This document shows, piece after piece, positions 1 to 33,016 of a stretch of DNA of 64,000 nucleotides; the stretch's first letter is position 1; the number at the start of each line of letters is the position of its first letter. The translations under genes and the position numbers were made by a program. Below the pieces are notes generated by a model. The model was given only the letters and a program-made list of their open reading frames with translations, did not search any database and was not told the origin of the DNA. Source of the stretch: a candidate division FCPU426 bacterium. Lineage in GTDB: Bacteria; Oederibacteriota; Muellerivitia; Muellerivitales; Muellerivitaceae. The stretch lies in assembly GCA_963738405.1 (NCBI GenBank), contig CAVTWJ010000009.1:4793-68792 (forward strand). The letters run 5' to 3'.

Positions 1-10
1 CGCGGCCGCG

Positions 11-1429: not shown

Positions 1430-1612
1430 GGGCTCGTGGTCGGGTTCGTAGTCGGGCTCGTGGTCGGGCTCGGCGTTCGGGTTCGTCGGCTCGGGCTCGG
1501 GTTCGATCGTGGGCGAGTCCCTGTTCGGGCTCACGAGCGGGCTCGTGGCCGGGCTCGTGGGCGGGCTCGTGGTCGGGCTCGTGGCCGGGCTCGCGGTCGG
1601 GCTCGTGTATCC
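1430..1612 (+). repeat. 12-nt tandem repeat (GGGCTCGTGGYC)n, about 15 units, encoding (G-L-V-x)n hydrophobic repeats; related degenerate copies at 1096-1320
   Basis: Direct reading of the sequence gggctcgtggtcgggctcgtggccgggctcgcggtc... In the 1509-1943 frame it translates to GLVAGLVGGLVVGLVAGLAVGLV. Confidence 0.7.
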
Positions 1613-1935
1613 CCAGTCGTGGTCATCCTCCCTCGCGTTTGCACAGCTCGCTGCATCTGACCGGACTCCGGTTCGCCTCATGCGGTTCCTCGAAGACGCC
1701 CGCAGCCGCAACGTCTTGCGCACGGTCGGGCCGGTCTACCAGTTCCGCCACGCCCGCCTGCAAGACCGCCTGGCCGCCCAGGAATCGGCAACTGGAAAGG
1801 GGCCCGGCAAGCCCGGCCTAGCGGCAGGAGGCGCCATGTTCACCATGATCACTCTACGCTGCCCCGGGGGAAGCGGAGACATGTCGAGCGGTCCGCCAAT
1901 GCTATCGAATATCGAGAATCCGACATTCCCATACT

Positions 1936-3883
1936 TCAACTGAAGCGTGGTAAGATTAAATGTGGTTTGCCCCAAATTATAAAGCGTGTCGTATGCGACG
2001 TTTGAGAGCCCCACTGATCCAGCACGCCAAGATTATTAAGCGGCGGCTTGATGCTATCGATCTGCGGCTTATAGATACTGGTGACGACCGTGAGGTTTCC
2101 TGCTACGTCATAGATATCCATTATCAGCTCTGCGGGTTTTGTCGGATCGGTGGGATACATCCAATAATCGCTGGTATCGATTCCGGCGCCTTCGATAAAG
2201 TTTGGATCGATGATATAGGACATATTATAGGAGGTATCTGCCTGGATCGCAGAAAGTAAGGACTGCTGGTTAACTCCATCCGGCAGGAGACCGGAATCGC
2301 TCACATGTACATAGGCATTCAAACACTCACCAACGGTATCGACTTTCGGCGCCACGGTATCCGGCGAGTGAAATGTACCGGTTGCGAACGGTCCAGACCA
2401 GTGCGTAGGACTCGTCATATCCATAACCATAGACATATACCCCACGCCATCCGTATCGCCATTGATAATATGCGCGCCCGGAGCGATCTGCGGAATGTTA
2501 AAGATCTCGAAGGTATCGTCAATGCACTGGCTCGTCTTGCCTAAAATGCTTTGGCCATCGAACTTCGTATTCTTCTCATCGTTCACATTGATAATGATAT
2601 TCGCATAGTTCACGTAAGGAACGATATTACCGACGCTTTGCGGCGTTTGGAAGAGCACGGTCTTGGTAAATTGCTCTTTCGGATTGATAACGCACTCGGC
2701 AGGATCGCCGAGGCCGTTGTTATGATCCGGATAGGTTGAGCTATTGATGTACCATACACAGAGGAACGGTTCTTTGCTCCAGAATTTTTGACCGAGTTCA
2801 AGCTCATCCCAATAGATACCGTATTGATTATCGATAATGCACTCGGTATGCTGGCCGGTTTGGCAATCCTGACGATAGATCGTCTGTCCTGGCACGGAAG
2901 AAATGAAGAGATACCGCGCAAAATCATGGCCCGGCATTCCCGGCGGCTGGATGGGGTTCGTGGCGTAATAGGTTTCTGCCCAGGTACGAATCGGGGGGAG
3001 CATATCCTCGACGTGATCGCAATAAGGGAAGTCGGCAGGGATATTCGGACAGCCCGATCCGCCGGAAACACCGACGGGCTGGTTCGAATGGACGATCGTG
3101 CCGGTCATATCGAAATTATCGCCATCGGATGCGCGAACCGGCATCATCTGAACATCTTGTCCGCGGTTAAGCGTGAAGATGCCGGTTGCCCTTGTGGATA
3201 CACTACGATGCCTGAATTGGCATCGCCACTGACGTTTCCAGACGTGCATTGACGGCAATCGCACGAAGGGGTGATGGTGACCTGCGTATTATCCTGATCT
3301 GCGGTGATCGACCATCGTCGATGGAAGATCGTAGACATACGTGCCGAATCCCTCGAAGAGCGAACCATAGGCTCCGCAAACGTAATCGGTACCCCAGCCG
3401 ATCGTGGGAATGATATAGGAACCGTCCGACGTGTACGGATTGTGGGACATATCATAGACTGTGATGTCCGCCGTTGGCGAATACACATGAATCGCTTTGT
3501 TTTCTACTTCACCGCTCGACTCCAGCTCCCAGAATTCCGGGATCTTGAAGCTGCCGATCTTATACGCCTGGATCGGAACGGGTAGTTCTGCTGCCGTTCG
3601 ACTCGACGAAGGCCGTGCAGTTTTCGGCGGACGTGATATAAATACGCATGTATTTACCGCCCAAGTCCTCGCCCCAGTAATTGGACATCATGGAGAACCA
3701 GAAATCGCGGCCGGAATGCGGCGGATGCTGCGGGTTCTTGACGATCGTGTGATGGATCAGCGCATTCTGTGCCGATACCGTGCCGCTTGGAAGCAGCACC
3801 ACCGAGCAAAGGACGACAAGCGCCGCCCAGAATGCCGCACGGATCTTCAAAGACGAAGAAACGAAAGAGTTAGAATGTGTCAT
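1936..3883 (-). pseudogene. secreted protein gene disrupted by at least two frameshifts (pieces 3560-3883, 3289-3486/3144-3488, 1936-3264); function unknown
   Basis: The N-terminal piece has a signal peptide (MTHSNSFVSSSLKIRAAFWAALVVLCSVVLLPSGTVSA). Three consecutive minus-strand ORFs in different frames tile the region without gaps. GC about 47%. Confidence 0.45.
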
Positions 3884-4268
3884 GGTCTTATTTGAAAAAG
3901 AAAACAACGAATAAATAAGCAGAAGTTGTAAGTAAAACCTAATTCCGATGCCAGAAGTAGCTGCGATTAAGTGCAACCGCCAAAAGCATGTTTTGATTCA
4001 TGGGGTCCGGAAAACCGATTGCGTAATCTTAGTTTGAAAGCTATTTTGCTCCCAAATGAAAGATCGCATTCTATAAGACCCAATAATCTCTGTTGAAATT
4101 ACCAGATCTCGGCTCTTGCCGAATCCCTCCTAATGTTTAAAACGCGCTGGGTCGCTCGGGTTACAAAAAAAAATTATGAATAATTTTACAGTGGCATCGT
4201 ATTTTTCATGAAAGCCTTAAAGAAAAGTACATTTTGCCACTTTTTCGCCATTATTGATACATTTGCAA

Positions 4269-6179
4269 TTATGGGTTCGAATCGAGAGGGGTTTCTACAA
4301 GAACCTGAACCGTCCTGTTATAGTACCTTCCTTCAGGAAGCTCGTTCGGATAGAGCGGCTGTGTTTTCCCATAGCCATGCGCAACCAGCGACTTAACTTT
4401 GCCCTTGATGTGCCCCGCAATATCCATCTTAACAGCATTTGCGCGGTTCGTCGAGAGCTTGGTATTGTAATCCTCGGTGCCTAAGATATCCGTGTAGCCA
4501 TTGACGGAAACATCCGAATTCGGCTGGATGCGATTATAAACGTAAGAATCCAAGATCTTGTGATTCCACTTGCCCATATCGGACTTGTTATAGGTGAAAA
4601 GGATAAGATTGTAAGTCTCACGGGTCTTATCGGCCAAATGCTCCGCAACAACGTTGCTAACGGAGAACTGCTTGACACTGATCTTATCGACATTGGAAGA
4701 AACCGTGCGGCCGGTCTTATCCGTGACATTGAGCTGAACGGACATCATATCCTCACCAGATGGAAGTTTGCCATCGGAGGAGCGCCAGTTATAACCATTG
4801 TAATCCATCTTCGATAGCGATCCAAGATCGGTGATCTCCGCCCATTTCTTGCCTTGATAACCAATCTCCAGTGCACGGCTTTGGATCGTCTCGTCTCGGA
4901 GTCCGTTCTCCCATTTGAATCCCCCTGTCGGCGCATCGGGGCGCTTCACATTGCTGTTGTGCAACACAGGATGAATGATCTCCCATGAATCGCTCGTAAG
5001 CTCTACGCGGCGATTCTCAGCAATGCCTTCGGGAGTAGTTGGAAGTGTTGGGCTTTCCGGAAGTTTGCGTGCTTCAACGGAAATGCGTTCTGGATTAATA
5101 CCCCAGATCTCGACCAGATATTTCTTGACCGATTCTGCGCGCTGGCGGGAAAGATCGATCGACATCTCATTATCGACATCCTGCGAGTTCGTACCCGTCA
5201 GGCCGATCTTCGTATCCGGATTGTTCCGCATCCGAAGTCCAACGATATTAAGATAATTATAGTAAGCATTTAACGTACCGCTGATCGTATCTTCCGTGAA
5301 ACCCTTCGTCTGATCCGGGCTGGTAAACATCACATATCGCGATGGGAGCGTGCCAGTTCCAGCATCGTAGAACACCATCGGCAGCAGTGCATACAAATCG
5401 ATCGTCTTTTGCTCGCGAATGATAACGCCTTTGAAATTCGGGAAAAGCGAGGGTTTTTCCTTGACGAGCTGAGGATCCTGAGTCACCCAATGCACGACCG
5501 GTGGATTCTCGTTATTCATCGGAATATCGTGTGTGATGCTGCGGGAGGAATCGTTGCGCAACGGGATCACTTCCGAGGTCGGGCCATAATTAAAGTGGTT
5601 CGATTCTGTCGCGCTAATGATATAGGTACCCCCAAGGTTGCCATCGGCATCGCTCGGAAGAATAGCAAGATACTCTCCAGTGGAGCTGTTCGTAGTCTTA
5701 TTATAGATCGTGTCCTTCGTGCGCGAATCGATAATTACGACGTGCGCGGTCAGGTTCTCCTTTGTATTGATATCATACGCACGACCATGCAGCACAAGGG
5801 TTGGCTTGGGCGCCGGAGGATTTGTTGCAACATATACATCGAGCTTGCCACTTCCGCCAGGGCGGCTGCTGCTGAAAAAGAGTACGTTACCGGAGGCCGG
5901 AACAGAAAGAAAGAAATCGTCAGAAGGAGAATTGATCGGAGCAGGAAGCCGAACGGGGGTGGTCCAATCTGTATCGCTGGGTCCTTTCCATTCCGATTGA
6001 TAAATATCCAGCCCGCCAAGTCCAGGATGATTAGGATCGCGGCTGGGGGCATCAGATGCAAAATAGAGCGTCGTACCATCGGCTGCCATAAATGGGGATC
6101 CTTCATAGCCACCGGTATTTATCTTCGTACCAAGATTAACGGGGTCACTCCAGCGACCATCGGGAACACTTAGACGACA
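4269..6179 (-). CDS. OmpA-family protein with PD40/TolB-like beta-propeller repeats, 5'-truncated (frame stays open up to the composition junction at about 6180)
   Basis: C-terminal OmpA-like domain (NGYTDILGTEDYNTKLSTNRANAVK...RTVQVLVE). N-terminal PD40-like repeats (DGTTLYFASD, LDIYQSEW, GKLDVYVA). No signal peptide or start context; the in-frame ORF runs to about 6179, just before a stop. Confidence 0.6.
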   Translation of the reverse strand, partial: CRLSVPDGRWSDPVNLGTKINTGGYEGSPFMAADGTTLYFASDAPSRDPNHPGLGGLDIYQSEWKGPSDTDWTTPVRLPAPINSPSDDFFLSVPASGNVLFFSSSRPGGSGKLDVYVATNPPAPKPTLVLHGRAYDINTKENLTAHVVIIDSRTKDTIYNKTTNSSTGEYLAILPSDADGNLGGTYIISATESNHFNYGPTSEVIPLRNDSSRSITHDIPMNNENPPVVHWVTQDPQLVKEKPSLFPNFKGVIIREQKTIDLYALLPMVFYDAGTGTLPSRYVMFTSPDQTKGFTEDTISGTLNAYYNYLNIVGLRMRNNPDTKIGLTGTNSQDVDNEMSIDLSRQRAESVKKYLVEIWGINPERISVEARKLPESPTLPTTPEGIAENRRVELTSDSWEIIHPVLHNSNVKRPDAPTGGFKWENGLRDETIQSRALEIGYQGKKWAEITDLGSLSKMDYNGYNWRSSDGKLPSGEDMMSVQLNVTDKTGRTVSSNVDKISVKQFSVSNVVAEHLADKTRETYNLILFTYNKSDMGKWNHKILDSYVYNRIQPNSDVSVNGYTDILGTEDYNTKLSTNRANAVKMDIAGHIKGKVKSLVAHGYGKTQPLYPNELPEGRYYNRTVQVLVETPLDSNP

Positions 6180-7285: not shown

Positions 7286-7303
7286 AAAAAAGAGGAAGTT
7301 GAC

Positions 7304-7732
7304 GTCATTGCGAGGAGCCATGCCGATAGGCATGGTTGGCGACGTGGCAATCTCAGGTTTTAGGGCTTGGGCCGGGATTAAACATGGATAAAAACGGATA
7401 CGTTTATATTCTTGCCAACAAAAACAACACGACCCTTTATACAGGGGTCACTAACGATCTAAAACGCAGAGTTTATGAACACAAAGAGAAGCTGTTTGAA
7501 GGTTTTTCGAAAAAGTTTAACTTAACGAAGTTGGTTTATTACGAAGTTTTGGACGGCATGTTGGAAGCCATTGAAAGAGAAAAACAGATTAAAAAATATT
7601 CCAGGATAAGGAAGATTGAGCTGATTCGGATTAAGAATGAAACGTGGAAGGATTTGTATGAAGGGTTATAGAAGCACAACTAAGATTGCAACGTCGCTAA
7701 ACGCACCTATCGGTGCAGCTCCTCGCAATGAC
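7304..7732. mobile_element. small palindromic element with about 50-bp terminal inverted repeats carrying a GIY-YIG nuclease gene (MITE-like family, copy A)
   Basis: Left arm GTCATTGCGAGGAGCCATGCCGATAGGCATGGTTGGCGACGTGGCAATCTCAGG (7304-7357). Right arm AGATTGCAACGTCGCTAAACGCACCTATCGGTGCAGCTCCTCGCAATGAC (7683-7732) is its reverse complement with few mismatches. Confidence 0.75.
7384..7671 (+). CDS. GIY-YIG nuclease superfamily protein (YhbQ/UPF0213-like)
   Basis: MDKNGYVYILANKNNTTLYTGVTNDLKRRVYEHK matches the GIY-YIG core (YVYIL...LYTG.T.DL.RR..EH). The ORF-track start at 7336 lies inside the left inverted repeat, so the ATG at 7384 is preferred. Confidence 0.75.
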   Translation: MDKNGYVYILANKNNTTLYTGVTNDLKRRVYEHKEKLFEGFSKKFNLTKLVYYEVLDGMLEAIEREKQIKKYSRIRKIELIRIKNETWKDLYEGL

Positions 7733-14943: not shown

Positions 14944-14962
14944 AGTTGTGTTAGGGTTTGAT

Positions 14963-15096
14963 GTCATTCCGAGGAGCAGAGCCGATAGGCTCGACTTGCG
15001 ACGTGGGAATCACAGGTTTTGCGGTAGTTTTTAAGTCATCACACTGAGATTGCCACGGTTCAAAACGCCCCGATTGGGGCTGAACCTCGCAATGAC
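14963..15096. repeat. empty copy (B) of the palindromic element family seen around the GIY-YIG gene
   Basis: GTCATTCCGAGGAGCAGAGCCGATAGGCTCGACTTGCGACGTGGGAATCACAGG ... ACTGAGATTGCCACGGTTCAAAACGCCCCGATTGGGGCTGAACCTCGCAATGAC. Confidence 0.75.
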
Positions 15097-15219
15097 GGCT
15101 TTTGAAAATTTATTTTAAAACTTTAAAACACAGGATTGATTTACCCTTGAAAAGCGGGCTCTATACCGGCTAAGGTTCTAGCGTTTCCCGTGCCGTTTTT
15201 TAAAACCCAAAGGTTGTCC

Positions 15220-19789: not shown

Positions 19790-19967
19790 TTACCCCGTCC
19801 GGGGTTGAAAGTGTTGAAAATTTGTCCGATTTTGCCCCCCTTTTTACCTCCCGCCGTAAAAAATCGGTAAAAGTTCACAAACGTATATTGCCCGGTTCTC
19901 AATTTTGAAAATAATATTTCTTGTTGGGGCCGTCTGGGCCAAACCCGTCCTTCGGTACCCTCAACCC

Positions 19968-20146
19968 GGTAAACAAAATCCACAAGTGGGTAAACAGTTC
20001 GGATAACCGGGTAAACAACAATCTCAACTAGGTAAACAAGGTCCGTAACCCGGTAAACAACCCACGCCAACCGGGTAAACAGGGACCCATAACTGGGTAA
20101 ACAGCCACTCTCAACCGGGTAAACAAGATTTCCCCGGGTAAACAAA
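19968..20146 (+). repeat. array of 9 direct repeats CGGGTAAACA at 21-22-bp spacing (iteron-like), preceded by an AT-rich segment (19895-19925)
   Basis: GGTAAACA occurrences start at 19968, 19989, 20010, 20031, 20052, 20074, 20096, 20118, 20137. Confidence 0.85.
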
Positions 20147-20156
20147 GGATTTTGCC

Positions 20157-22322
20157 GTGCCCCAACCTACGCCCGAATCAAAGGCCTGGATGGAAAGTTT
20201 GTCCGACCTGGCCGCCGACATTGAAAAACATCAAAAAGTTAAACATGCCGATCGGGCGGACGCCCTCGACCTTCACCCTACCAAGTTATCCTTCCTTTTG
20301 GCACTCCACCGGTGTTTGGACCCTGCGGCCCTTGCGAAAATCCGTCAGGCCGCCCAGGGGGATCACCCCTTTACCCTATCCTTTAAAAGCGCCAAGGCCT
20401 TGGCAGAGCTAGAGGGCCGGGTTCCTGATCTGTCAAAGGCGGTCCATGAGGCCTTAGACCAGATTCTGCCCCACCACCTAGCCACCCTGCAGATCAAAGC
20501 CCTGGTGGACCATATGGCCAGCGGCAAACCCGCCCAGGAATTTGACCCGACCCAGGTTAAAAAGACCCCCAAGGGTGGCCTTTCCCTCCAATCCCCAAGC
20601 CCTGACCCACCCCAAGAAGCCGAAGAGGATTCGGAGGATGAAGAACCGGAAGAAGAACCAACCAACCCAAAGGCCAAAAAGAAGACCTCTGCCCTGAGGT
20701 TTCAAACCGAGGGGCAAGGTTTGAGTGTACCCATTCCCAAAAAAGGAATGGGTAAGGCCAAAGGTCCCAACCTAAAACCCGCCAAGAAGGCCCTCAAAGG
20801 CGGGTTTAAAGACCTCCTCAAATACATTCACGAATATGTCAAAGCGGGCAGTAAGGCTGTGGCCGATTATTTCATTCCCTTGCACTCCCGTTCTAGCGGT
20901 AAGCGGGGAGGGGCCCAGTCCCTGCCCAACCTCTTCCGCTTTGCGGGCCATTGGGGGCTCTACTGGTTTTGCGTCCTGTTTATGTATGGCGGTAGCATCA
21001 GCTTCGTGGGGCACTTTATCCCCGGGGTGGGCCCCTGGATCGACGGCCTTCGGCTGGCTTTTTTCCACTTCATCCTTCACCTGCCTCTATGGCTCCTGGC
21101 ACAGGCGCTGGCCAAGCCCTGGGTGGTTCTAGTGCTAGGCGTTGCTCTGGTCTGGTGGATTCACAAGGAATTCCACGCCGGGTTGATGGCCACCCTCATC
21201 GTCGCGGCGGTTTTGGGCGCGGGATGGTATTTCCGGGGCTGGGTAATGGAACATCTACCAAATTTGACAAACCCATTTTCACCACCAAGTCTCCAAGACA
21301 CCAAGAACGACCAAGCCTTGGATAACAGCAAAACCCAAAGCCCCATAACCTCACCACCCAAGGCGGCCGGTTCCCCTATGGAACCGGCACAGCCAAGTCA
21401 TGGGCCTCGACCTGTCGTCTCGGCCCAGGCGCCCTCTGCCCGGAGGTCTCAAACCGACGGGCGTGACTTGAGTGCACCAATTCCGGAAAAAGGAATTGGT
21501 GTACAGGCCATGCCCAAAGAAGACCGGGCCTCTTTAGAAGCAGAAATCGCCGCCCTGCCCCGGCCCTGCCGGGTCAAAGATTTTCCCATCGAACCCGACC
21601 CCAATATAGGCGCCGAAATGGCAGGCCGCCGCCTCTCGGATATCCAGGACCCGGAAAAATATTCGCTTCGCGTGGGGCCCGATGAAAAAAAGATTACATC
21701 GGCGGTGGTGAATGGCTCCGGTTTCAACATGGAAATCCAAGGCGGCTTTTCGCTGGGGGACATCAACAGCGTCTTGGGCGATTCATCAAAAAAGGGAATG
21801 GCGTTTTATTGGGAAGACGTGCGGGCCATCCATTGTTGCGAGGTGGATGTGCTGGGGGATCACCCCCGTACCCTTTACCAATGCGGTTTGCTGATTGCGG
21901 GTTTGAAAAAGCCCATCACCGTGCAATGCGCAAGTGTTGAGGACTTGGGGCACCTGGTTTCGGGGCTGGAATTTTGGGTGCGAAACGCGCAGGGGGGCAA
22001 GAACGCGCCGATTGGCGGTTTGCCCTATCTGTACCAGGGCCTTCTGTTGGGCAGTGAAGGGGAAGTGATAGGTACTTGGGATAACAGCCCCATCGCGAAA
22101 ACGGGTTTTATGCCGGGCGATCATATATGGTCTGTGGATTCGAACCCCGGCATGCGCATGGGCAACGAGGAATTGCTTTCGAGTCTGCAAGACCTGTCGC
22201 CGGGCCCGCACGCGCTGTTTGTGGTGGACCCGGGTGAATGGGTGAAGGGAATGACGGGCCCAAGAAACAGAACCTGGGTTTTCAACCCGAAAAGAGTGAA
22301 GCTTCAATTGCTGGTTCAGTAA
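20157..22322 (+). CDS. large hypothetical protein, function unknown (acidic/Pro-rich linker, central 4-5 TM helices, internal SxPIPxKGxG repeat, possible C-terminal PDZ-like segment)
   Basis: 721-aa ORF with a GTG start directly after the repeat array (an alternative ATG lies at about 20186). Low-complexity EEDSEDEEPEEEP. Hydrophobic core LYWFCVLFMYGGSISFVGHF...VVLVLGVALVWWI. Confidence 0.5.
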   Translation: MPQPTPESKAWMESLSDLAADIEKHQKVKHADRADALDLHPTKLSFLLALHRCLDPAALAKIRQAAQGDHPFTLSFKSAKALAELEGRVPDLSKAVHEALDQILPHHLATLQIKALVDHMASGKPAQEFDPTQVKKTPKGGLSLQSPSPDPPQEAEEDSEDEEPEEEPTNPKAKKKTSALRFQTEGQGLSVPIPKKGMGKAKGPNLKPAKKALKGGFKDLLKYIHEYVKAGSKAVADYFIPLHSRSSGKRGGAQSLPNLFRFAGHWGLYWFCVLFMYGGSISFVGHFIPGVGPWIDGLRLAFFHFILHLPLWLLAQALAKPWVVLVLGVALVWWIHKEFHAGLMATLIVAAVLGAGWYFRGWVMEHLPNLTNPFSPPSLQDTKNDQALDNSKTQSPITSPPKAAGSPMEPAQPSHGPRPVVSAQAPSARRSQTDGRDLSAPIPEKGIGVQAMPKEDRASLEAEIAALPRPCRVKDFPIEPDPNIGAEMAGRRLSDIQDPEKYSLRVGPDEKKITSAVVNGSGFNMEIQGGFSLGDINSVLGDSSKKGMAFYWEDVRAIHCCEVDVLGDHPRTLYQCGLLIAGLKKPITVQCASVEDLGHLVSGLEFWVRNAQGGKNAPIGGLPYLYQGLLLGSEGEVIGTWDNSPIAKTGFMPGDHIWSVDSNPGMRMGNEELLSSLQDLSPGPHALFVVDPGEWVKGMTGPRNRTWVFNPKRVKLQLLVQ
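22158..22322 (+). repeat. direct repeat copy 1 (the 3' end of the 721-aa gene); copy 2 at 23100-23264
   Basis: About 165 bp with about 95% identity: atgggcaacgaggaattgctttcgag...caacccgaaaag. Confidence 0.85.
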
Positions 22323-22449
22323 TTGGAGTCCTCAAACCGTGGCATTCGTCTTGTGAACGAATGCCAGAGATGAAATTAACTGTGACGACCAAGTCGTCTT
22401 CTTGAGTTGATTTAAAATAGATGGTATAACAGTTATACCTGGAGCATGG

Positions 22450-22728
22450 ATGCGGTTTAAATTCGACAGGAACAAGAGCCATAAACTCCGCCGAAACCCC
22501 GCGCGCGGCATTGGTTTCGAGGAAGCCCAAAGAATATGGGAAAGCCCTTACTACCTCGACCAACGTTCCGACTTTCCGGAACAATGGAGGGCCATTGGCT
22601 GGGTGGGAGATAGGCTTTATTCCGTGATCTATGAAGAAAGAAGGGACCGGGAAGGGGATTACATCCACTTGGTCACTCTTTGGAAATCCACCAAGGAAGA
22701 AAGGAAATTATATGAAACCCATTCTTAA
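22450..22728 (+). CDS. brnT: BrnT-family toxin (DUF497) of a type II toxin-antitoxin pair
   Basis: MRFKFDRNKSHKLRRNPARGIGFEEAQRIW...YSVIYEERRDREGDYIHLVTLWKSTKEERKLY fits the BrnT pattern. Confidence 0.7.
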   Translation: MRFKFDRNKSHKLRRNPARGIGFEEAQRIWESPYYLDQRSDFPEQWRAIGWVGDRLYSVIYEERRDREGDYIHLVTLWKSTKEERKLYETHS

Positions 22729-22996
22729 GACAAAAAAAGTTCTGACGGCGGAACAAATAGCCCAAATGGCCGACAAGGGTAAGGATGTTTCCAAGCATTT
22801 CACGAACCATGGAAAAATGATGCCCGCCATCCGCCGGGTCAATGTGGATTTCGCCGAAAACATGCTGCGGGAATTGGACGGTTTGGTCCGCGAGATGAAC
22901 GTAAGCCGTCAGGCGGTCATCAAAGCTTTCCTGCGCCAGGGATTGGATCAGCACTACTTAGCCAAGAAAAAACGCCCGCATCCAACCGCTCATTAA
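22712..22996 (+). CDS. brnA: BrnA-like antitoxin (ribbon-helix-helix)
   Basis: Overlaps brnT by 17 nt. C-terminal RHH-like NVSRQAVIKAFLRQGLDQH. Confidence 0.6.
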   Translation: MKPILKTKKVLTAEQIAQMADKGKDVSKHFTNHGKMMPAIRRVNVDFAENMLRELDGLVREMNVSRQAVIKAFLRQGLDQHYLAKKKRPHPTAH

Positions 22997-23099
22997 CTCT
23001 TTAGTCCGATCCGGAAAACACAGGATGTAGTGGTGCCTTAAAAGGGGTGTATTAGAGTGGATCTGAAATTTTCTTTTTTCAGGCCTGACCCCTTTTACA

Positions 23100-23264
23100 C
23101 ATGGGCAACGAGGAATTGCTTTCGAGGCTGCAAGACCTGTCGCCGGGCCCGCACGCGCTGTTTGTGGTGGACCCGGGCGAATGGGTGAAGGGAATGACGG
23201 GCCCAAGAAACAGAACCTGGGTCTTCAACCCGAAAAGGACGAAGCTTGAATTGGATGTGCCGTA
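23100..23264 (+). repeat. direct repeat copy 2 (duplicated 3' end of the 721-aa gene; remnant ORF MGNEELLSRLQDLSPGPHALFVVDPGEWVKGMTGPRNRTWVFNPKRTKLELDVP)
   Basis: Aligned by eye to 22158-22322. Confidence 0.85.
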
Positions 23265-23284
23265 AAAGAGGTATATAAAGGGAA

Positions 23285-24283
23285 ATGAATTTGGATTACG
23301 TAGTCTGTAATTTTCTTTTTTCAGATCTGCCCCCTTTTACGATAATTAACGAATCGTTTGAACTTAAGGATATAAATTCGATGTTTTTAAAACCGAAAAC
23401 TTTAAAAATAAAACTTTACGAAGTGCCAACAACCAGCGAAAAAAATGTTATTGCAAAACTCCGAAAGGAGCTATTCCCAAAAGCTAATAAAGAAATGTTT
23501 TGGGGCATTGTCGCTGAATGGTATTCCTGGCTCAAACCAAACTGCAATCAAATTTCTATTTCAGACGCAGGCTATAAAACCAAATACGGGAAGGTTAATG
23601 TCAAAGAAATCGCTATTGCTCTTAACCGCCATCCAATAATTCTTCATGACAGTCAGTATCTCGAAACAACTTTTGTTCTATTACCTTGCTACCGATTTCT
23701 TTTTGACAACACCCTTGAGCCGTTGAGAATTTCGAAAGAACTTTTCGAAGCATTGAAAGAAATTAAAGAAAGAGATGCAAAAGAACATACTTCTATTTCA
23801 TATAAGGCTGACGAGCTGACCAAACGACTTGGTATGAAAGTAGATGAACCTTTCGAGGAAAAAATCCGTATGTTGTGCGATATAGGATTATTACACTGCT
23901 CTTCTTGGTCTTCAGGTTCCTCATTATTTGAAAATGCAACACTCAACATCAGCATTAAACCAACGGAAGAATATGAAGAGTGGTATAGAAATTTAATTTC
24001 TAATTTTGAGCGAGACGTAAATGACAACAAGAGAGAATTCTGGAAAAAAAACAAATTTTTACGTTGGCTCTCAGGGAAGGAATCCCTGACTGATAATGTT
24101 CTTGTTCCTGGTGAAATTTCCATTCAGGCTCAAAAACCAAGAATTTTACAAATTTCTATCCTTATACTTTTTATCCCACTCCTGGGCACAACCATCTATT
24201 TTGCTTCTCAAGCTAATTGGCCAGCCTGTGGAATATTTTTAACAGCAATATTAGCTTTATTGAATCTCGCCAAAGGGATGTAG
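23285..24283 (+). CDS. hypothetical protein with C-terminal double TM anchor (low-GC cassette, gene A)
   Basis: GC about 34%. C-terminal ILQISILILFIPLLGTTIYFASQANWPACGIFLTAILALLNL. Confidence 0.5.
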   Translation: MNLDYVVCNFLFSDLPPFTIINESFELKDINSMFLKPKTLKIKLYEVPTTSEKNVIAKLRKELFPKANKEMFWGIVAEWYSWLKPNCNQISISDAGYKTKYGKVNVKEIAIALNRHPIILHDSQYLETTFVLLPCYRFLFDNTLEPLRISKELFEALKEIKERDAKEHTSISYKADELTKRLGMKVDEPFEEKIRMLCDIGLLHCSSWSSGSSLFENATLNISIKPTEEYEEWYRNLISNFERDVNDNKREFWKKNKFLRWLSGKESLTDNVLVPGEISIQAQKPRILQISILILFIPLLGTTIYFASQANWPACGIFLTAILALLNLAKGM

Positions 24284-24285
24284 AA

Positions 24286-25500
24286 ATGTCGAATTCCGAA
24301 ATTCCAATCTCCAAAAATTATTTCTCGGCCAAAGGCAAAAATGCAGAAAGTTTTTTATACGAGCTTTCTAAGAAATCTTTTTTTGTAGATTGGTGTTATT
24401 TAAACCCTCTGTTACCAGACGGAAAAGAATTATGTGATCTGTTAATTGTGTTTGACGAAATTGCAATTATTTGGCAAATAAAGGATTTGAAGCCCAATAA
24501 AGACGGAGGAATTAAAGAGTCCGATTTTGAAAAAAACATAAAACAACTGTCCGGCGCACGCCGTACCCTTTTCGACCTTAAAACTCCAATTAAGTTGAAT
24601 AATCCAAGACGAGGGGAAGAAATATTCAACCCTGAAAAAATCAAAGAAATATATTTAATTGCAGTTTTCATCGGTGATTTTCAATCAAGCATTCCTTTAA
24701 TTGATTCAATCAAAAAATATTTGGTCCATATTTTCATAATGCCTTTTTTAGAAATAGTTTTGAACGAGCTAGATACCATTACTGATTTTATAGAATACTT
24801 AAGGTGCAAAGAAAAATTCATTACTTCTTTTAATCAACGGATAATTACTCTTTCCGGCGAAGAAGATTTTCTCGGTCTTTATCTTTTAAATGATAGAAAT
24901 TTAGACAAATTCAATAATGCTATTTTATTAACCGTTGCGGATGATATTTGGAAAGGATTTTCCACTTCTGAAAATTACAACCGCCGAGAAAAGGCTGATA
25001 AGAAAAGTTATTTTTGGGACAATCTGATTAATAGAGCCCATGAAGCAGAAACGGGAGAATACGAAATAATAGCTCGTGAATTGGCTCGTTTAAATCGCTT
25101 TGAAAGAAGATTGGCAAGTAACAGTTTTATTGAAGCCCATTTGTCGCTAAAGAATGATCCGAATAAATTATTCAAACGAACAATAGCAATTAAAGGCGTT
25201 TCTTATTGTTTTTTATTCGCTGGTGAAGCTGAAAAAGATATCGAGGAACGAAAAAATCTCTTGTTTCATACTTGTATGATTGTACGGATGCTTAAGCCTG
25301 AAAACAAAACCGTAATCGGCATTTCTACAAGTGCTGCGTATGGCCCAACATTTGGATATGAGTTTTTTTATATAAATATTCCAGAACTTTCTCAAAGTGA
25401 TATTGATGAAATCAAACAATACCAAAATAAGTTAGGGATCTACACCAAACCAGAAGAACACTTCAAGCAAGAATGGGAATATCCAAAAGATAAATCTTAA
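24286..25500 (+). CDS. NERD (nuclease-related, PD-(D/E)xK-like) domain protein (gene B)
   Basis: GKNAESFLYELSKKSFFVDWCYLNPLLPDGKELCDLLIVFDEIAIIWQIKDLK resembles the NERD core (G..E..v..L.kl...v..n.......EiDhlvi...gifvIEvKn). Start MSNSEIP at 24286 preferred over 24217. Confidence 0.45.
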   Translation: MSNSEIPISKNYFSAKGKNAESFLYELSKKSFFVDWCYLNPLLPDGKELCDLLIVFDEIAIIWQIKDLKPNKDGGIKESDFEKNIKQLSGARRTLFDLKTPIKLNNPRRGEEIFNPEKIKEIYLIAVFIGDFQSSIPLIDSIKKYLVHIFIMPFLEIVLNELDTITDFIEYLRCKEKFITSFNQRIITLSGEEDFLGLYLLNDRNLDKFNNAILLTVADDIWKGFSTSENYNRREKADKKSYFWDNLINRAHEAETGEYEIIARELARLNRFERRLASNSFIEAHLSLKNDPNKLFKRTIAIKGVSYCFLFAGEAEKDIEERKNLLFHTCMIVRMLKPENKTVIGISTSAAYGPTFGYEFFYINIPELSQSDIDEIKQYQNKLGIYTKPEEHFKQEWEYPKDKS

Positions 25501-25514
25501 GCTCTAAAAACACC

Positions 25515-26297
25515 ATGGAGGCTATTAAAATGCCATCCGAAATCCACACAGAAAATTCCGTAAAAGATAAATATAAAATCATGTATAAAAATTCTTACGC
25601 CTCAACTTTGCGAGACATTGCTGATTACGATTACATTTCGGCTCGACTTCTTCTTAGAAACCATTGCAAAGACCAATTTTTATATCTTGCCTACCAATCT
25701 CTAGAAAAGTACATGAAGTCCATTTTACTTTTTCATCTCCGAAAAAACAAAATCGGACATGATATTACAAAACTATTTGGTGAAATTTGTAAAATCACTG
25801 AGTTTGAGATCGGAAATAATCCAAGAATAAAGACCTTTATTGAAAGGTTTGATAATACTTTCGGGGACCCAAGATATTTATCGCTAGGATTTGCCGGTGA
25901 TTATAAGTATCTATTCGAACTAGATTATGCAGTTTGGAAACTTAGGATTTATTGTCAGCCTGAGAGAAACAGAATCTCTTTATTGGAAAAGGCGGACGAA
26001 AAAATATTGAAAAAATCATTCTTGAAAGGGACATTCTTACTTTGGTCGGGAGTATTAGAAGATGTTCATAAGGAAAAGAAAAAGGGCTTATATCAGAGTT
26101 TGGTTTGGTTTAATTCTTACTTTGGTCGTTTCAAAGGGAATGAAATGTCTCTCATGGGATATTGGTTTAAAAATTCTCCGTTGTTTTCAGGCAATGAAGA
26201 AAGACGCCTCTTAACTTACGAATCCATAAAGGACTATGTTCACATACCCCCGAAAATAAAAAACTACTTTGAAGATTTGAAAAAAAGGAACTCCTGA
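25515..26297 (+). CDS. HEPN-like protein (Rx5H motif) (gene C)
   Basis: DYDYISARLLLRN...FLYLAYQSLEKYMKSILLFHLRKNKIGHDITKLF. The R-x5-H and helical pattern resemble HEPN. Confidence 0.4.
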   Translation: MEAIKMPSEIHTENSVKDKYKIMYKNSYASTLRDIADYDYISARLLLRNHCKDQFLYLAYQSLEKYMKSILLFHLRKNKIGHDITKLFGEICKITEFEIGNNPRIKTFIERFDNTFGDPRYLSLGFAGDYKYLFELDYAVWKLRIYCQPERNRISLLEKADEKILKKSFLKGTFLLWSGVLEDVHKEKKKGLYQSLVWFNSYFGRFKGNEMSLMGYWFKNSPLFSGNEERRLLTYESIKDYVHIPPKIKNYFEDLKKRNS

Positions 26298-26465
26298 ACT
26301 GGTATGGAAGAAACGGACGGGGTCAGGCATGAAAAAAGAAAATTAAAGTTAATCGCACAACAATTACTAACATCACTTATATCCACGTCCTGAATCAGTT
26401 CGAACAAGACCTTAAGTTGTGTCTCCGTTAGTGGTAAAAGTCGCTTTTAATTAAATGGATAAATA

Positions 26466-28976: not shown

Positions 28977-29020
28977 AAGCTTTTCGAAGGTCAGAATTTA
29001 TTTAGTTCGTTTTTCTAAAC

Positions 29021-29095
29021 GCGGTCCCCGGCACCACTTCCCAATGGGTGGAGCCGGGGTGCATCCAGATCAAAGGTAGGGCCATCCAATCCCCT
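29021..29095. repeat. about 75-bp repeat, copy 1, derived from the 3' coding region of the PA14-fusion gene; copy 2 at 30591-30662
   Basis: Identical 37-bp core ACTTCCCAATGGGTGGAGCCGGGGTGCATCCAGATCA at 29036-29072 and 30603-30639, with similar flanks. Confidence 0.8.
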
Positions 29096-29204: not shown

Positions 29205-29573
29205 ATGTCCACGCCGCTTTTAGATCTGCCAAAAGACCATCTTTCGTTATTTAAAAAAAACAAACCCGACTATGAGAACATCGTGGATTTCCTACATCTC
29301 AAAAGGGTGGATGTGGCAAAGGCAACGGGGCTGGCGACCTCTTCAGTCCGTTTTGATGGGAAAATACCTCAGGAATTATCCGAGATACTTCTTCAATGGG
29401 CGGTTTTGTTCAATAAAGTAGCGGAATTTTTTAAGGGCGATGTTTATAAAACGAATCTTTGGTTCAATGTTCCGAATCCTTTGTTGGGAAATATAACTCC
29501 AAAAGATATGATCCGGCTGGGCCGCTATAAAAAACTTTATAGTTTTGTTTCACAGGCTATCGAAGACAATTAA
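29205..29573 (+). CDS. Xre/MbcA/ParS-like antitoxin (DUF2384 toxin-binding domain)
   Basis: C-terminal NLWFNVPNPLLGNITPKDMIRLGRYKKL matches the DUF2384 pattern (A..W...PN..LGG.TPL....T). Confidence 0.6.
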   Translation: MSTPLLDLPKDHLSLFKKNKPDYENIVDFLHLKRVDVAKATGLATSSVRFDGKIPQELSEILLQWAVLFNKVAEFFKGDVYKTNLWFNVPNPLLGNITPKDMIRLGRYKKLYSFVSQAIEDN

Positions 29574-29587
29574 AACAGGTATTTAAG

Positions 29588-30505
29588 ATGGATAAGAGCC
29601 GGCGAAAAAAGAAACTTGATTCCCGCGCCTTATCCTTTCTCCTCCCGACCTATTTACCTCTGGATCAATTCAATGTTCTTGACGTGCAGCGTTGGCAATC
29701 CGGCCAACAAAAGCTCAAGGATTTTTATGGGCAATGGTATTTCGAATTAGCCAGGCAACGTTCCCGGGCGAAAGAATCAATCAATCGCTCACTTCAGAAG
29801 GCAAGCACACCCTATTCTTTCTCCCCTTGTTATAGGGTATTTCGCTTTAAATGGGCCTTGGGCCCGCTTTCTTCCAAAGGAAGCCTTAAGGTTCCGGGTG
29901 GACGTTTCAATATCGGTGACATCGACGAGAGCTTATTTCAGAAATTTCCCGCCCTTTATTTGGCTGAAGACGCAGATACGGCTCTCTGTGAAATGATAGG
30001 ACCGAGACGAAATCCTTTGGAAACATTCAACCAATTTGATTTGGCTTCGATTAATGAGAAATCATTATCAATTGTGGCAACTTATGGGGAACTTGAATCG
30101 GTGGTGGATTTGACCAATCGGGAATGCCTGAAAGAATTTATTGATGTAGTTAAAACTTTTACCGTTTCCAAAAGTCTTGAAAAATTGGCCCAGGAAGTGC
30201 GGATCAATCTAAATGGCGGCACGGTTAATAGCGTGGATCTTCTTATGGAAACCCTCATGAATCCTAATTGGAGACAATTTCCAATGCATGTCGATGTACC
30301 CGCAAATTCTCAAATATTTGGACAGCTTGTTTGGGACGCAGGAATCGAAGGGGTTGTCTATTCCTCGAAATACACTAATAAAAAGTGTTTTGCGATTTTC
30401 CCGAATAACCTCAAGGGCGGCGATTCATTTGTGGAAATTATGGATGATGTTCCCAAAGGCGCAATTAAGCGTTTAGACTCCAAAACGTGGGAAAAACTTA
30501 TTTAA
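29588..30505 (+). CDS. RES-domain toxin (NAD-targeting toxin family) with N-terminal extension
   Basis: CYRVFRFKW, GGRFNIGD, FPALYLAEDADTALCEM, VVYSSKYTN supply RES-domain R/E/S positions. The gene is 15 nt downstream of the antitoxin. Confidence 0.6.
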   Translation: MDKSRRKKKLDSRALSFLLPTYLPLDQFNVLDVQRWQSGQQKLKDFYGQWYFELARQRSRAKESINRSLQKASTPYSFSPCYRVFRFKWALGPLSSKGSLKVPGGRFNIGDIDESLFQKFPALYLAEDADTALCEMIGPRRNPLETFNQFDLASINEKSLSIVATYGELESVVDLTNRECLKEFIDVVKTFTVSKSLEKLAQEVRINLNGGTVNSVDLLMETLMNPNWRQFPMHVDVPANSQIFGQLVWDAGIEGVVYSSKYTNKKCFAIFPNNLKGGDSFVEIMDDVPKGAIKRLDSKTWEKLI

Positions 30506-30556: not shown

Positions 30557-32701
30557 TCAAAGCTTACGTTGGTTGATCTTCCCGAAAGTAGAGGCTGGCA
30601 CAACTTCCCAATGGGTGGAGCCGGGGTGCATCCAGATCAGATTCACGGCCATCGAATCCCCGCCCGTCTTAATAAATTCCACTTTGATCGAATGTTCTCC
30701 CTTATGAAGGTTCAGTTTTTTATCTGAAGGCATTCCCGCTCCATAAATCTTTTTCCCATCCAAGAAAATAGTCCCTTGGTCCTGGGTCAGGCATTCAAAT
30801 TGATATTCGCCTGAAGCTGGAATTTCCAAATGGCCCTTCCAGCGGATGCTGAAGGGGGGCGGGTTGGTGAAGGGAAAGTCCTGCTTGCTGGTGAAATTCA
30901 AAAGAGGGTCGCTCTTTACCGTCACGGGAGTCCCCAAAAAGAAGCTGGTGTTCCAATAGGTTCCCGTCAGGCCCTTATCCCAACCCTTGAAAGAATTGAC
31001 CGTTAGATTGGATATGGCGTAGCAGGAGACAAGGGTTCGTCCATCCGGGCTTTGCAAAGCATCCTCTGTGCCTCCAGGAAAAATAGTTTTGAGAAGGTCC
31101 AAAACCCCGGCCTTGCCCTCCTCCGTGAAAAAAACCGCGTCCTTGTCCTTAGCTAAATTTCCGGCGGCCAGATCGTTGAGATTGAAACGAACGATGGCCG
31201 CCCCCGAGGCATCGGCGAGGAACCGGGTGGTATGGTTTTCGTAGTAAAGGGGCGGGAGATAAAAGCGGTAGCGGCCCGGATATAGTTTTTCCAGGTTTTC
31301 AACGCCCCGGCCGATGTAAGTCTGCTCTAACCCAAATGAGGTCTGGCAGGCGGGGTCTTGGTCCATCTTCTCGAAATAGATCAGGTAGTTTTGAACCGCG
31401 ATGGGGGCAATCAGGGCAAAACCCAAAAAAGGAATAAGCCATTTCGTTTTATTGGAAAGGGCTAAGCGCCGCCAGAATTCTTCCATCGTGGTTCCGGCGA
31501 AATAGGCGGCAAAGACCGAGAGAATCCAAAGCCGGTTGGAATTGGCGGGGTCATTCGCCAGCGTCCCTACGGCGAGGAAGATCAGAAAACCCGCCAGGGG
31601 ATAAAACCCGCCCCTTTCTTTGCGCCGCAACCAAGCCAGGCCCAGCCCCAAAACAAAACAGACCCCGGTGATGTCATCCAGCATCCGGGTTCCCGGCAGA
31701 TTATGGCGGGGGTTGGGGTCGCCTTGGCGGTTGAACATCAAAATATTCGAAACCGCCTGGTCCCAGAGGGGTTTCAAACTGTGCTGGGCTTTGATGTTGT
31801 TGCCGATGAAGATGTCGCTCTCCCGGTTTCCCGCCGTGTGGTTCAAGACCAAATAGGCCAAGAGGGGCAGGGCCAAAAGCAAAAAGAGCCCCGCCCAAAG
31901 AGCCAGAGCCCTGGCCTTCTTTGATCCCCTGCGAAACTCGTAAAACCCGAAGAGCAAAAAGAGAAGGGGAACCACTTTGAAGATTTGGTAGGTATAGAGC
32001 CCCAGTCCCAAAAAGAGCGCCGAAGGGTAAAAAGAAGATTTCTGGTTCTTCATGACCCAATGGAGCCAAAAGGCCAGCCCGGCGAAAAGAAAAAAGCCGG
32101 TTTGGCAGGAAGGATACCCGGTGCGGGGCTCAATCCAGTTCCACCGCATGAGCCCCAATAATAGAAACGAAAGGAGGGCGGTTCGGGGGCCCGCTAACTG
32201 CCGAATGGCCCAATAGATGAAAGGGAAAGAAGCCATGGCGAGGGTTACGAAGAACAGGTGGAAGGACAGGTAGGAAGAACCGAAAAGCCAAAACCAACCC
32301 GCCAGGAAATAGGGAATCAGCAGTTCGGGAACCGGGTAGCTGTAAATGTCGTAAAAGGGCCGCCAGCCCTTCAAAACCCAAAGGCCGTATTCCCCTTCCA
32401 GCCCCTGGTCGGTGTGCATCCCATCGGGCATGGAATCCAGTTGATAGACCCGAAGGAAGAGGGCGATCAGGAAAATAAAAACAAAGGCAACCGTTTCGAC
32501 ATCAAGAGAAAGGGGCTCGAAAGCCGGGGAGCCGATCTGGGGGTCCCGAAACAACAGCCAAAGGGCCAGGCCGTAAAAAAATAATCCGGGAGCCAAGGTC
32601 CAGGGTGCGCCGGACTGGGCCATCCAGAACTGCCCCAAGGCCGCCGATAGAAGCGGCGCCCAACATTTCATCCAGGAAGGGCGTGTGGTTGAAGGGGGCA
32701 A
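30557..32701 (-). CDS. polytopic membrane glycosyltransferase-like protein (GT39/ArnT/PMT-like, about 12 TM) fused to a C-terminal PA14 domain
   Basis: N-terminal two-thirds is multi-TM. C-terminus GTYWNTSFFLGTPV...SIRWKGHLEIPASGEYQFECLTQDQGTIFLDGKKIY is PA14-like. Confidence 0.55.
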   Translation of the reverse strand: MPPSTTRPSWMKCWAPLLSAALGQFWMAQSGAPWTLAPGLFFYGLALWLLFRDPQIGSPAFEPLSLDVETVAFVFIFLIALFLRVYQLDSMPDGMHTDQGLEGEYGLWVLKGWRPFYDIYSYPVPELLIPYFLAGWFWLFGSSYLSFHLFFVTLAMASFPFIYWAIRQLAGPRTALLSFLLLGLMRWNWIEPRTGYPSCQTGFFLFAGLAFWLHWVMKNQKSSFYPSALFLGLGLYTYQIFKVVPLLFLLFGFYEFRRGSKKARALALWAGLFLLLALPLLAYLVLNHTAGNRESDIFIGNNIKAQHSLKPLWDQAVSNILMFNRQGDPNPRHNLPGTRMLDDITGVCFVLGLGLAWLRRKERGGFYPLAGFLIFLAVGTLANDPANSNRLWILSVFAAYFAGTTMEEFWRRLALSNKTKWLIPFLGFALIAPIAVQNYLIYFEKMDQDPACQTSFGLEQTYIGRGVENLEKLYPGRYRFYLPPLYYENHTTRFLADASGAAIVRFNLNDLAAGNLAKDKDAVFFTEEGKAGVLDLLKTIFPGGTEDALQSPDGRTLVSCYAISNLTVNSFKGWDKGLTGTYWNTSFFLGTPVTVKSDPLLNFTSKQDFPFTNPPPFSIRWKGHLEIPASGEYQFECLTQDQGTIFLDGKKIYGAGMPSDKKLNLHKGEHSIKVEFIKTGGDSMAVNLIWMHPGSTHWEVVPASTFGKINQRKL

Positions 32702-32836
32702 GAGCGATCCTTGAGTTGAAATCAGCCACTATCATAACCCATCCGAGGGCTTGGCCGCCGTTGACGGTCCTTCAGCCCGGCCCTAGGATAGGTCTTGCTG
32801 AAAAGTACCGGCAGTGGCTCAGTTTGAATTAACGCC

Positions 32837-32960
32837 GTCATTGCGAGGCCCAGCCCCAATCGGGGTGGTTTGAGCCGTGGCAATCTCAGTTAAAAGCCGA
32901 AAAAAACCTGGGATTCCCACGTCGCAAACCAAGCCTATCGGCTTTGCTCCTCGGAATGAC
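32837..32960. repeat. empty copy (C) of the palindromic element family
   Basis: GTCATTGCGAGGCCCAGCCCCAATCGGGGTGGTTTGAGCCGTGGCAATCTCAG ... GGGATTCCCACGTCGCAAACCAAGCCTATCGGCTTTGCTCCTCGGAATGAC. Confidence 0.75.
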
Positions 32961-33016
32961 AAACAGACCTAAAATCTGTTTTATCTTTTTTAAAATTAGT
33001 TTCCCCCGGAGGGAAC

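Follow-up and report, generated by a model that had tools for sequence, protein, structure and literature searches.

How did a toxin-antitoxin (TA) pair come to lie between two copies of the end of its neighbour's gene? The brnT and brnA genes in a 64-kb stretch of contig CAVTWJ010000009.1 from a candidate division FCPU426 bacterium (hereafter the window, 64,000 nt in full) raise this question. They follow the gene for a 721-aa membrane protein, and the 3' end of that gene is found once more downstream of them. We find that the feature is real and recurrent, and that it belongs with a known class of rearrangements whose mechanism is unsettled, described for restriction-modification genes as insertion with long target duplication. 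In all three cases that we analysed the two gene ends, judged by the pattern of their differences, are distinct alleles and not a fresh duplicate. The brnTA locus (case 1) is built from the following elements, given in order along the window:

20157-22322, forward strand: gene of the 721-aa membrane protein (open reading frame, ORF; homologues P0001-P0007)
22157-22322, forward strand: copy 1 of the repeat, the working 3' end of this gene (last 54 codons and stop)
22278-22322, forward strand: the divergent part of copy 1, its last 45 nt
22340-22398, forward strand: two hairpins just 3' of the stop of the 721-aa gene (22340-22366 and 22384-22398; DNA fold z = -4.5)
22423-22439, forward strand: palindrome GGTATAACAGTTATACC upstream of brnT, kept in every aligned brnTA cassette and recovered by folding
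22450-22728, forward strand: brnT, toxin gene, 92 aa (PF04365)
22712-22996, forward strand: brnA, antitoxin gene, 94 aa, ribbon-helix-helix (PF01402, NF047399), overlapping brnT by 17 nt
23004-23061, forward strand: third copy, decayed, of the final ~45 nt of the gene, with stop and downstream spacer, abutting the brnA stop (local and three-way alignment)
23062-23098, forward strand: R1, a 37-nt repeat (repeat search)
23100-23265, forward strand: copy 2, an orphan 3' end of the 721-aa gene with 54 codons in frame (23101-23265) and its own stop
23304-23340, forward strand: R2, the second copy of the 37-nt repeat, 38 nt past copy 2
26319-26348, reverse strand: R3, an inverted copy of R at the far end of a three-gene segment of 34% GC

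The direct repeat (22157-22322 and 23100-23265) is 166 nt long with a spacing of 943 nt, and 154 of the 166 positions are identical (93%). In a gapped alignment the homology sets in abruptly at CATGGGCAAC and breaks off precisely with the TAA stop, both flanks being unrelated. An initial sequence-only reading of this DNA had located the duplication correctly to within one base. It had also recognized copy 1 as the true end of the 721-aa gene and copy 2 as a fragment that retains its own stop, with the TA cassette bracketed by the two; its identity figure of about 95% compares with 93% here. It had further placed copy 2 right after brnA, where we find 103 intervening nucleotides made up of the decayed third copy with its spacer, followed by R1. 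An extension of copy 2 upstream to 22975 was rejected as a tblastn over-extension that runs through stop codons.

The brnT product matches PF04365 over its full length (E 2.8e-7) with 31.2 bits, just missing the gathering score of 34.5; more than 1500 homologues carry this domain and several of them are named BrnT. The brnA product scores 47 bits with the BrnA model NF047399 (E 2e-12, cut-off 60) and 23.4 bits with PF01402 (cut-off 20.5). By their domains and gene order the two genes are a BrnT/BrnA type II TA system, with a predicted ribonuclease toxicity that BrnA would neutralize. DNA homology to other brnTA cassettes extends from about 22395 up to the brnA stop and not beyond. Within it, the palindrome GGTATAACAGTTATACC is a likely candidate for the BrnA operator. 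The two hairpins occupy the stretch between copy 1 and this conserved cassette, and the palindrome there occurs only once in the window. Nothing further on the cassette region came from searches with PADLOC, PHROGs and Rfam.

Downstream of brnA the unit of gene tail, stop, spacer and R is present twice, once decayed and once intact. Local alignment of 23004-23061 with 23221-23283 gives a score of 36, compared to 19.8 +/- 3.7 for shuffled sequences, none of 500 reaching it. The mismatches between copies 1 and 2 are distributed as a mosaic, with 2 in the first 121 nt (1.7%) and 10 in the last 45 nt (22%; Fisher p = 4e-5), with a change-point at the position where the decayed third copy begins. 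From these alignments the older displaced gene end appears to be the remnant at 23004-23061 rather than the 166-nt repeat, and the remnant is apparently the oldest scar left by brnTA. This suggests that the locus was built in two layers, namely an older insertion of brnTA with a new tail of ~45 nt and a later join through R1. The layers are placed in this order because the remnant is frameshifted by indels and ~35% diverged, whereas copy 2 is intact.

Next to this locus the window, otherwise of 53% GC, contains a segment of 34% GC with three genes (23341-26318) that is bracketed by inverted copies of R (23304-23340 and 26319-26348). The genes comprise a 300-aa ORF, a 427-aa ORF with a match to phrog_18195 and a 260-aa HEPN protein; PADLOC gave no match on this three-gene segment. 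The segment may be a separately acquired or invertible unit.

The layout is repeated in the window, as the sequence-only reading had pointed out, at a Xre-RES pair that is situated between the working end of a 714-aa GT39/PA14 gene and an orphan of the same end (case 2):

29002-29094, reverse strand: orphan 3' end of the 714-aa gene, which reads GDWMALPLIWMHPGSTHWEVVPGTAFRKTN and keeps its own stop
29205-29573, forward strand: Xre-type antitoxin gene, 122 aa (PF09722, weak)
29588-30505, forward strand: RES-domain toxin gene, 305 aa (PF08808, 47.1 bits, cut-off 23.2)
30557-30661, reverse strand: working 3' end of the 714-aa GT39/PA14 gene (gene 30557-32701), which reads GDSMAVNLIWMHPGSTHWEVVPASTFGKINQRKL up to its stop

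The core repeat of case 2 spans 65 nt (29030-29094 and 30597-30661, 89% identical) inside a homologous gene end of ~93-105 nt. It contains an exact core of 37 nt with diverged sequence on either side, and the first identical block at the gene-proximal edge measures 7 nt. A convergent 318-aa gene has its stop 26 nt away from the orphan. The match of the Xre product to PF09722, the MbcA/ParS C-terminal toxin-binding domain, is weak (E 9.6e-4, 19.5 bits, cut-off 24.5); the position of Xre upstream of RES corresponds to the gene order of the MbcTA/ParST type. An independent Logan unitig of 1590 nt (L011) covers the interior of case 2 completely, and at either end it stops in the shared 30-mers. 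We rejected its interpretation as a circle, as it corresponds exactly to the de Bruijn unitig that runs from one 37-nt exact repeat to the other, with overlaps of 30 nt. Another repeat in the window, at 12640/13380, is not a further case and corresponds to two tandem paralogous genes.

The third case comes from an unrelated lineage. A BrnT homologue with 84% protein identity (P0009) is encoded on contigs L022-L027 downstream of a DUF1569 gene, and in L022-L026 a brnTA pair that is 76% DNA-identical to that of the window is bracketed by a duplicated DUF1569 gene end. The direct repeat of L022 (2391-2502 and 3380-3491) is 112 nt long with 88% identity, encloses brnTA together with a 52-aa ORF, and spans the last 32 DUF1569 codons plus ~25 nt further. 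In the 96 coding nucleotides the two ends differ at 11 positions, of which 10 are transitions and all 11 are synonymous. The probability of an all-synonymous outcome is 1e-8 to 1e-5 for random changes, and 0.006 if only five of them arose in a neutral orphan. The mismatches are evenly spread, with a longest perfect block of 17 nt and a first block of 2 nt at the gene-proximal edge. The structure was recovered with both copies unchanged in five independent assemblies from different runs and assemblers. The three instances are independent of one another: their TA pairs belong to two families with no relation to each other, and the three target genes (PDZ-like membrane protein, GT39/PA14 and DUF1569) are likewise unrelated.

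What, then, are the two copies? The sequence-only reading had proposed that the terminus was regenerated or copied as in a target duplication, and this does not agree with their divergence. We consider the repeat to be two alleles joined because the divergence is synonymous-only in L022 and mosaic in case 1, and because part of the orphan in case 2 is consensus-like. In L022 a fresh in situ copy followed by decay is ruled out because every coding difference is synonymous, and on this pattern the copies evolved inside working genes before coming together. Both tails of the 721-aa gene are natural among its orthologues, with KLELDVP of copy 2 resembling KLELAVP of P0003, and LQLLVQ of copy 1 resembling LPLLVQ of P0002. 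Five orthologues of the 714-aa protein share GDWMALHLIW...ATAFGK. In the first part of this stretch the orphan has the orthologue consensus GDWMAL, while the working end is off-consensus with GDSMAV, a contrast that is also seen at the DNA level in the alignment with L032 and L034. The tails are mixed with respect to the consensus, with TAF in the orphan and FGKI in the working end. In these comparisons the orphans look, at least in part, like resident, vertically inherited ends, and the TA-adjacent working ends like newcomers.

Relatives that lack the cassettes have a single gene end, in line with the empty-site comparison put forward by the sequence-only reading. This holds for two metagenomic DUF1569 relatives without brnTA (L030 and L031, 85% and 79% identity) and for two orthologous 714-aa loci without Xre-RES (L032 and L034); the comparison covers the L022 type and case 2, at 63-85% protein identity. 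The window, L032 and L034 furthermore share a conserved gene order on both sides of an interval, with ABC_tran, ABC2_membrane and PCMT on one side, and GT39/PA14, two small membrane proteins and Proton_antipo_M on the other. The interval from PCMT to GT39/PA14 measures ~1.0 kb in L032, 3.6 kb in L034 and 10.8 kb in the window, and its content differs each time: L032 has one 236-aa gene, and L034 has a MNT/HepT pair, an iteron array with a short 218-aa member of the 721-aa family, an acetyltransferase and another 218-aa gene. By this comparison of three loci the interval is a variable hotspot whose right-hand flank is not common to the strains. One-ended recombination is to be expected there because homology between strains is found on the gene side only. 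The cassettes are foreign in composition, with a GC content of 41% for Xre-RES and 42-50% for the brnTA segment compared to 53-57% for the flanking genes.

Searches for further examples gave little. No indexed contig matched exactly in look-ups with the 721-aa protein, P0001-P0003 or BrnT. A genome scan with the 721-aa protein found only distant family members (29-58% identity) in metagenome-assembled genomes (MAGs) of candidate division FCPU426. The 54-aa tail of the gene had no match in a metagenome scan, and tblastn for more orphan tails in L001-L010 returned none that was significant. The syntenic neighbourhood in the relatives is rich in TA pairs, including MNT/HepT, PIN/DUF6364, VapBC and a HigBA-like pair directly after the family gene of L001 (L034 14885-17085 and 20602-21194; L001 8022-8815; L004 16665-17359). 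No gene-end duplication was detected at these pairs in L001, L004 and L034. The pattern is not universal, because L001 and L034 have TA modules without a flanking duplication. L005 has a tandem duplication of ~256 bp (3519-3993, 4380-4422) close behind the family gene, with a short ORF that ends in PRGRLELLVP before its stop, like the C-terminal tails of the family; its tblastn match is not significant. This ORF may be a decayed orphan end.

An explanation of these loci has to account for a seamless left side in a conserved gene, an abrupt right joint without homology and two alleles of the gene end, and further for minimal inserts, a location at hotspot edges and repeated events at one gene end. 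We favour their interpretation as scars of homology-anchored, one-ended recombination at the edges of variable regions, and we rate the chance that it is correct as about even. Donor DNA from a related strain would have carried the end of the same conserved gene and an adjacent TA cassette. Pairing would have occurred by homology inside the gene, and the far, non-homologous end would have been joined illegitimately shortly upstream of the resident stop. The gene would thereby remain intact but end in the incoming allele, followed by the TA pair, with the resident end pushed downstream as an orphan. For the 721-aa gene at least two such events would be required, the older one leaving the decayed ~45-nt remnant after brnA and the later one leaving the 166-nt copy 2. 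In the later event a brnTA-bearing arrangement would have been joined via R1 to position -166 of a gene end that was functional until recently. The right boundary of the repeat at the stop codon is where the two genomic contexts diverge, and we count this in favour of recombination. Once in place, the structure is probably stabilized by the TA pair, as recombination between the direct repeats would delete the pair and release the toxin; this role is suggested by post-segregational killing in general. The same product would result if a small circle were integrated by a Campbell-type crossover inside the repeat; this is less likely in L022 because the longest perfect block there is so short.

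Displacement of this kind has been described for type VI secretion system (T6SS) effector-immunity loci, Rhs loci and contact-dependent inhibition (CDI) loci, where orphaned 3' ends arise by sequential displacement and homology-facilitated illegitimate recombination (HFIR) has been proposed (Kirchberger et al. 2017, PMC5361080). In these arrays the closest relative of an allele is not another allele of the same genome (PMC5361080). Common to these systems and our loci is that DNA is anchored in a conserved upstream gene, that the end is replaced and the old end shifted downstream, and that repetition builds arrays of orphans. In contrast, the displaced end in those systems is itself a toxin domain and the passenger its immunity gene, whereas here ordinary gene ends (PDZ-like, PA14, DUF1569) are displaced, and the passenger, the TA pair, is independent of them and has a promoter of its own and a putative operator.

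Several points weigh against homology-anchored recombination. It requires a donor in which the TA cassette is already placed beside the orthologous gene, and leaves the origin of that arrangement unexplained. Without exception, the illegitimate joints (three, or four with the 45-nt remnant) are confined to the final 45-166 nt of the gene, and such clustering is not predicted by random HFIR. The joints can be read, but microhomology is not demonstrable at them as donor sequence beyond them is lacking. Measured rates of HFIR are low (PMC5361080), the uptake of DNA is only assumed for this lineage, which is uncultivated, and the empty-site support comes from case 2 and the L022 type only. Finally, synonymous-only divergence is equally expected for integrase-driven elements that mimic a gene end, as in icd/icdC of prophage e14 (PMC13626634).

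The latter possibility is the main rival, which we disfavour and regard as unlikely. The cassettes would then be miniature or decayed integrative elements whose recombinase acts in trans or has since been lost and whose attachment site mimics the 3' end of a gene; the repeats would represent attL and attR, with only the TA pair left in between. Excision of e14 from icd yields a run of synonymous changes, and icdC is a pseudogene (PMC13626634). The likeness to our loci is considerable, with an intact gene that runs into the element, an orphan C-terminal fragment at the far end and mainly synonymous differences; as around e14, the repeats include an alternative gene end that preserves the protein (PMC13626634). 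The block of 27 identical nucleotides with which the repeat of case 1 starts on its gene-proximal side and the 37-nt exact core in case 2 are also consistent with such an element, as is the presence of related brnTA cassettes in recombinase-associated arrays elsewhere (L028). However, e14 comprises 15 kb and has its own site-specific recombination, while the inserts here are 0.8-1.5 kb and no recombinase was found among the ORFs scanned in 64 kb. They are minimal (0.78 kb for brnTA and 1.46 kb for Xre-RES) and free of other element debris. The three target genes would demand three specificities. In case 2, gene-derived homology continues for ~25 nt past the exact core on the gene-proximal side, and the evenly spread mismatches of L022 leave no clear core at the edge.

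The sequence-only reading had suggested recombinase or integrase genes and att-like cores at the repeat ends as something to look for. A Pfam scan of ~50 window ORFs with a length of 150 aa or more (one ORF per locus, overlapping alternative-frame ORFs being skipped), together with the cassette region, revealed no integrase, recombinase, transposase or reverse transcriptase domain. The window contains no tRNA gene and gave no Rfam match, and there are no inverted repeats at the insert ends. No att- or attC-like core was found, and shared imperfect palindromes are absent from the cassette borders in the window.

The brnTA coding DNA is 76-83% identical to that of cassettes in quite different settings. 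On contigs L012-L021, L028 (1189-3687) and L029 (3480-4936) brnTA is one unit in arrays that are spaced by a ~31-nt palindrome, TTGTCCACGACGGGGACCCGTCGTGGACAA. PemK pairs, VapBC, SduA_C, PCMT, flavodoxin and others make up the remaining units; their order varies among the contigs, and the array of L028 terminates at a serine recombinase gene. These arrays are integron-like, though without an attC consensus or IntI; alternatively the palindrome could be a repetitive extragenic palindrome (REP)-type element. The TTGTCCACGACGGGGACCCGTCGTGGACAA element has no match in the window at up to 3 mismatches.

With chromosomal integrons the loci share small TA units with their own promoter that move as units, and related brnTA cassettes are found in shuffled arrays. 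The window cassettes differ in that they have no attC-like or palindromic boundaries and no integron integrase, and the integron cassette reading was rejected for the window on these grounds. Integron insertion does not duplicate the end of the neighbouring gene. Target-site duplications made by transposons are typically shorter than 15 bp and identical when made, and the element has terminal inverted repeats and a transposase. We rejected this type of duplication as the repeats are 166, ~93-105 and 112 nt long and diverged, with no inverted repeats and no transposase. The common insertion mechanism for TA cassettes that the sequence-only reading had envisaged is plausible, given its recurrence with brnTA in L022-L026, but a transposon-like form of it is wrong. 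A diversity-generating retroelement, which would confine mismatches to the adenines of one copy and have a reverse transcriptase close by, was likewise rejected, as only 2 of the 12 mismatches of case 1 involve A in either copy and no reverse transcriptase was found in the window.

As a mechanism, true long target duplication at insertion, in which wide staggered breaks are filled in and the resident 45-166 nt are copied on both sides of the cassette, is in our view very unlikely. The term comes from work on restriction-modification (RM) systems (Nobusato et al. 2000, as cited in PMC2654758; Furuta, Abe & Kobayashi 2010, PMC2853133), which employs it without a settled mechanism (PMC2853133). 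There, a complete module of less than 20 kb without mobility genes is flanked by direct repeats of more than 30 bp, with one copy at the empty site (PMC2853133). The repeats reach ~400 bp, are often 93-99% identical and in some instances overlap the 3' end of a neighbouring gene (PMC2853133). As a class of rearrangement it is matched by our loci: the inserts are likewise below 20 kb and without mobility genes, the repeats exceed 30 bp, and an empty site is available for case 2 and the L022 type; the topology fits in three independent cases. The loci differ from the RM examples in their cargo, a type II TA pair, and in repeats that always include the stop codon of the gene. They differ also in copies that are distinct alleles by their synonymous-only or mosaic differences, a point not addressed in the published description. 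In a non-exhaustive literature search we found no published description of this scar for TA modules. It is the alleles that tell against copying of the resident end at insertion. Copies made in situ start out identical and the orphan then drifts neutrally, yet none of the L022 coding differences alters the protein, the orphan of case 2 is partly more consensus-like than the working copy, and case 1 diverges by 1.7% in one part and by 22% in the other.

The possibility that coexisting strain haplotypes with and without the cassette were concatenated in a metagenome-assembled contig has to be considered, since the window is probably derived from a MAG (its relatives are all MAGs) and the copies look like two alleles, as in strain mixtures. 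Such an artefact is nevertheless highly improbable. The joint between R1 and copy 2 (23099/23100) is not located at shared sequence, where assemblers mis-join; the L011 unitig reproduces the whole interior of case 2 and ends as expected of a real repeat; and the L022-type structure assembles alike across its five runs and assemblers. A programmed switch, in which recombination between the repeats would swap the C-terminal tail and delete the cassette, as with silent ends of Rhs/CDI or pilin genes, and the orphan would be kept for this function, can practically be dismissed: copy 2 has an intact frame and an orthologue-like tail and a recombined hybrid gene would be functional, but the remaining orphans have been truncated or have decayed (23004-23061), the genes concerned are not related to each other, no recombinase was found in the scanned window ORFs and the relatives have single ends.

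Returning to homology-anchored recombination, the placement of all joints in the final 45-166 nt is a hint that the process is more regular than illegitimate recombination by accident. A TA pair with a captured host gene end might constitute a self-propagating unit that needs no integrase, an idea that we consider doubtful. Through its flanking repeats the unit could loop out, or a cell could acquire it in fragment form; in relatives that lack it, homology to the captured end would direct it to the same target gene, and cells that lost it would be penalized by the toxin.

The 721-aa protein comprises a conserved N-terminal domain of ~135 aa, a charged linker, one or more transmembrane segments or helices and a PDZ-like C-terminus (weak PDZ matches). 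It has no matching Pfam family, and a scan of viral contigs for relatives of the gene family found none. In 9 of the 11 loci fetched, the window included, a direct-repeat array of 8-25 repeats with a period of 21-22 or 42-43 nt is located immediately 5' of the family gene. The array motif is locus-specific (GGGTAAACA in the window, 19960-20146), and up to five such loci occur per genome. The family looks like a membrane-anchored, predicted DNA-binding protein with its own repeat array. A comparison of the convergent 318-aa protein of case 2 with the outer-membrane-like genes that follow family members elsewhere gave a BLASTP E of 0.23, and homology is not established. The arrays in the relatives are:

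L001, 4018-4501 and 5765-5937: repeat arrays
L002, 811-949: repeat array
L004, 9683-9975: repeat array
L005, 1056-1576: repeat array
L006, 9052-9777: repeat array
L008, 9263-9901: repeat array
L009, 6370-6502: repeat array
L034, 14160-14712: repeat array

Inside the 721-aa gene a 68-nt direct repeat (20686-20753 and 21433-21500, 82%) encodes SALRFQTEGQGLSVPIPKKGMG and SARRSQTDGRDLSAPIPEKGIG, stretches that correspond to alignment gaps in the orthologues P0002 and P0003. A 41-nt stretch of the gene, ATTTTCACCACCAAG...CACCAAG (21275-21315), encodes its conserved peptide FSPPSLQDTKNDQ and recurs with 85% identity at 44143-44183, in an intergenic position 23 kb away. Elements of 54-75 nt beginning with GTCATTGCGAGG form inverted pairs at three intergenic sites of the window with 70-86% identity, and look like miniature inverted-repeat or REP-like elements:

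7303-7356 and 7679-7732: GTCATTGCGAGG elements
14951-15102: GTCATTGCGAGG elements
32831-32972: GTCATTGCGAGG elements

The first 2000 nt of the window (1-2000) have a GC content of 68-72%, compared to ~53% elsewhere, and contain 12-nt periodic repeats GGGCTCGTGGYC in a 549-aa ORF without a Pfam match.

The movement of chromosomal TA modules without a visible mobility gene is poorly explained, and the loci described here provide a checkable footprint of it, an allelic gene end that has been displaced. A constraint on the mechanism comes from L022, where the solely synonymous divergence points to a repeat made of two joined alleles instead of one that was copied. Acquisitions in MAGs could be dated and traced by means of orphan ends beside TA pairs, with modest value unless the pattern proves common. 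A self-propagating unit, if true, would amount to the 'virus-like life cycle' that has been proposed but never shown for RM systems. The footprint links the spread of TA modules both to the long target duplication of RM systems and to the orphan-end arrays of polymorphic toxins, and suggests one general entry route for addiction modules into variable regions.

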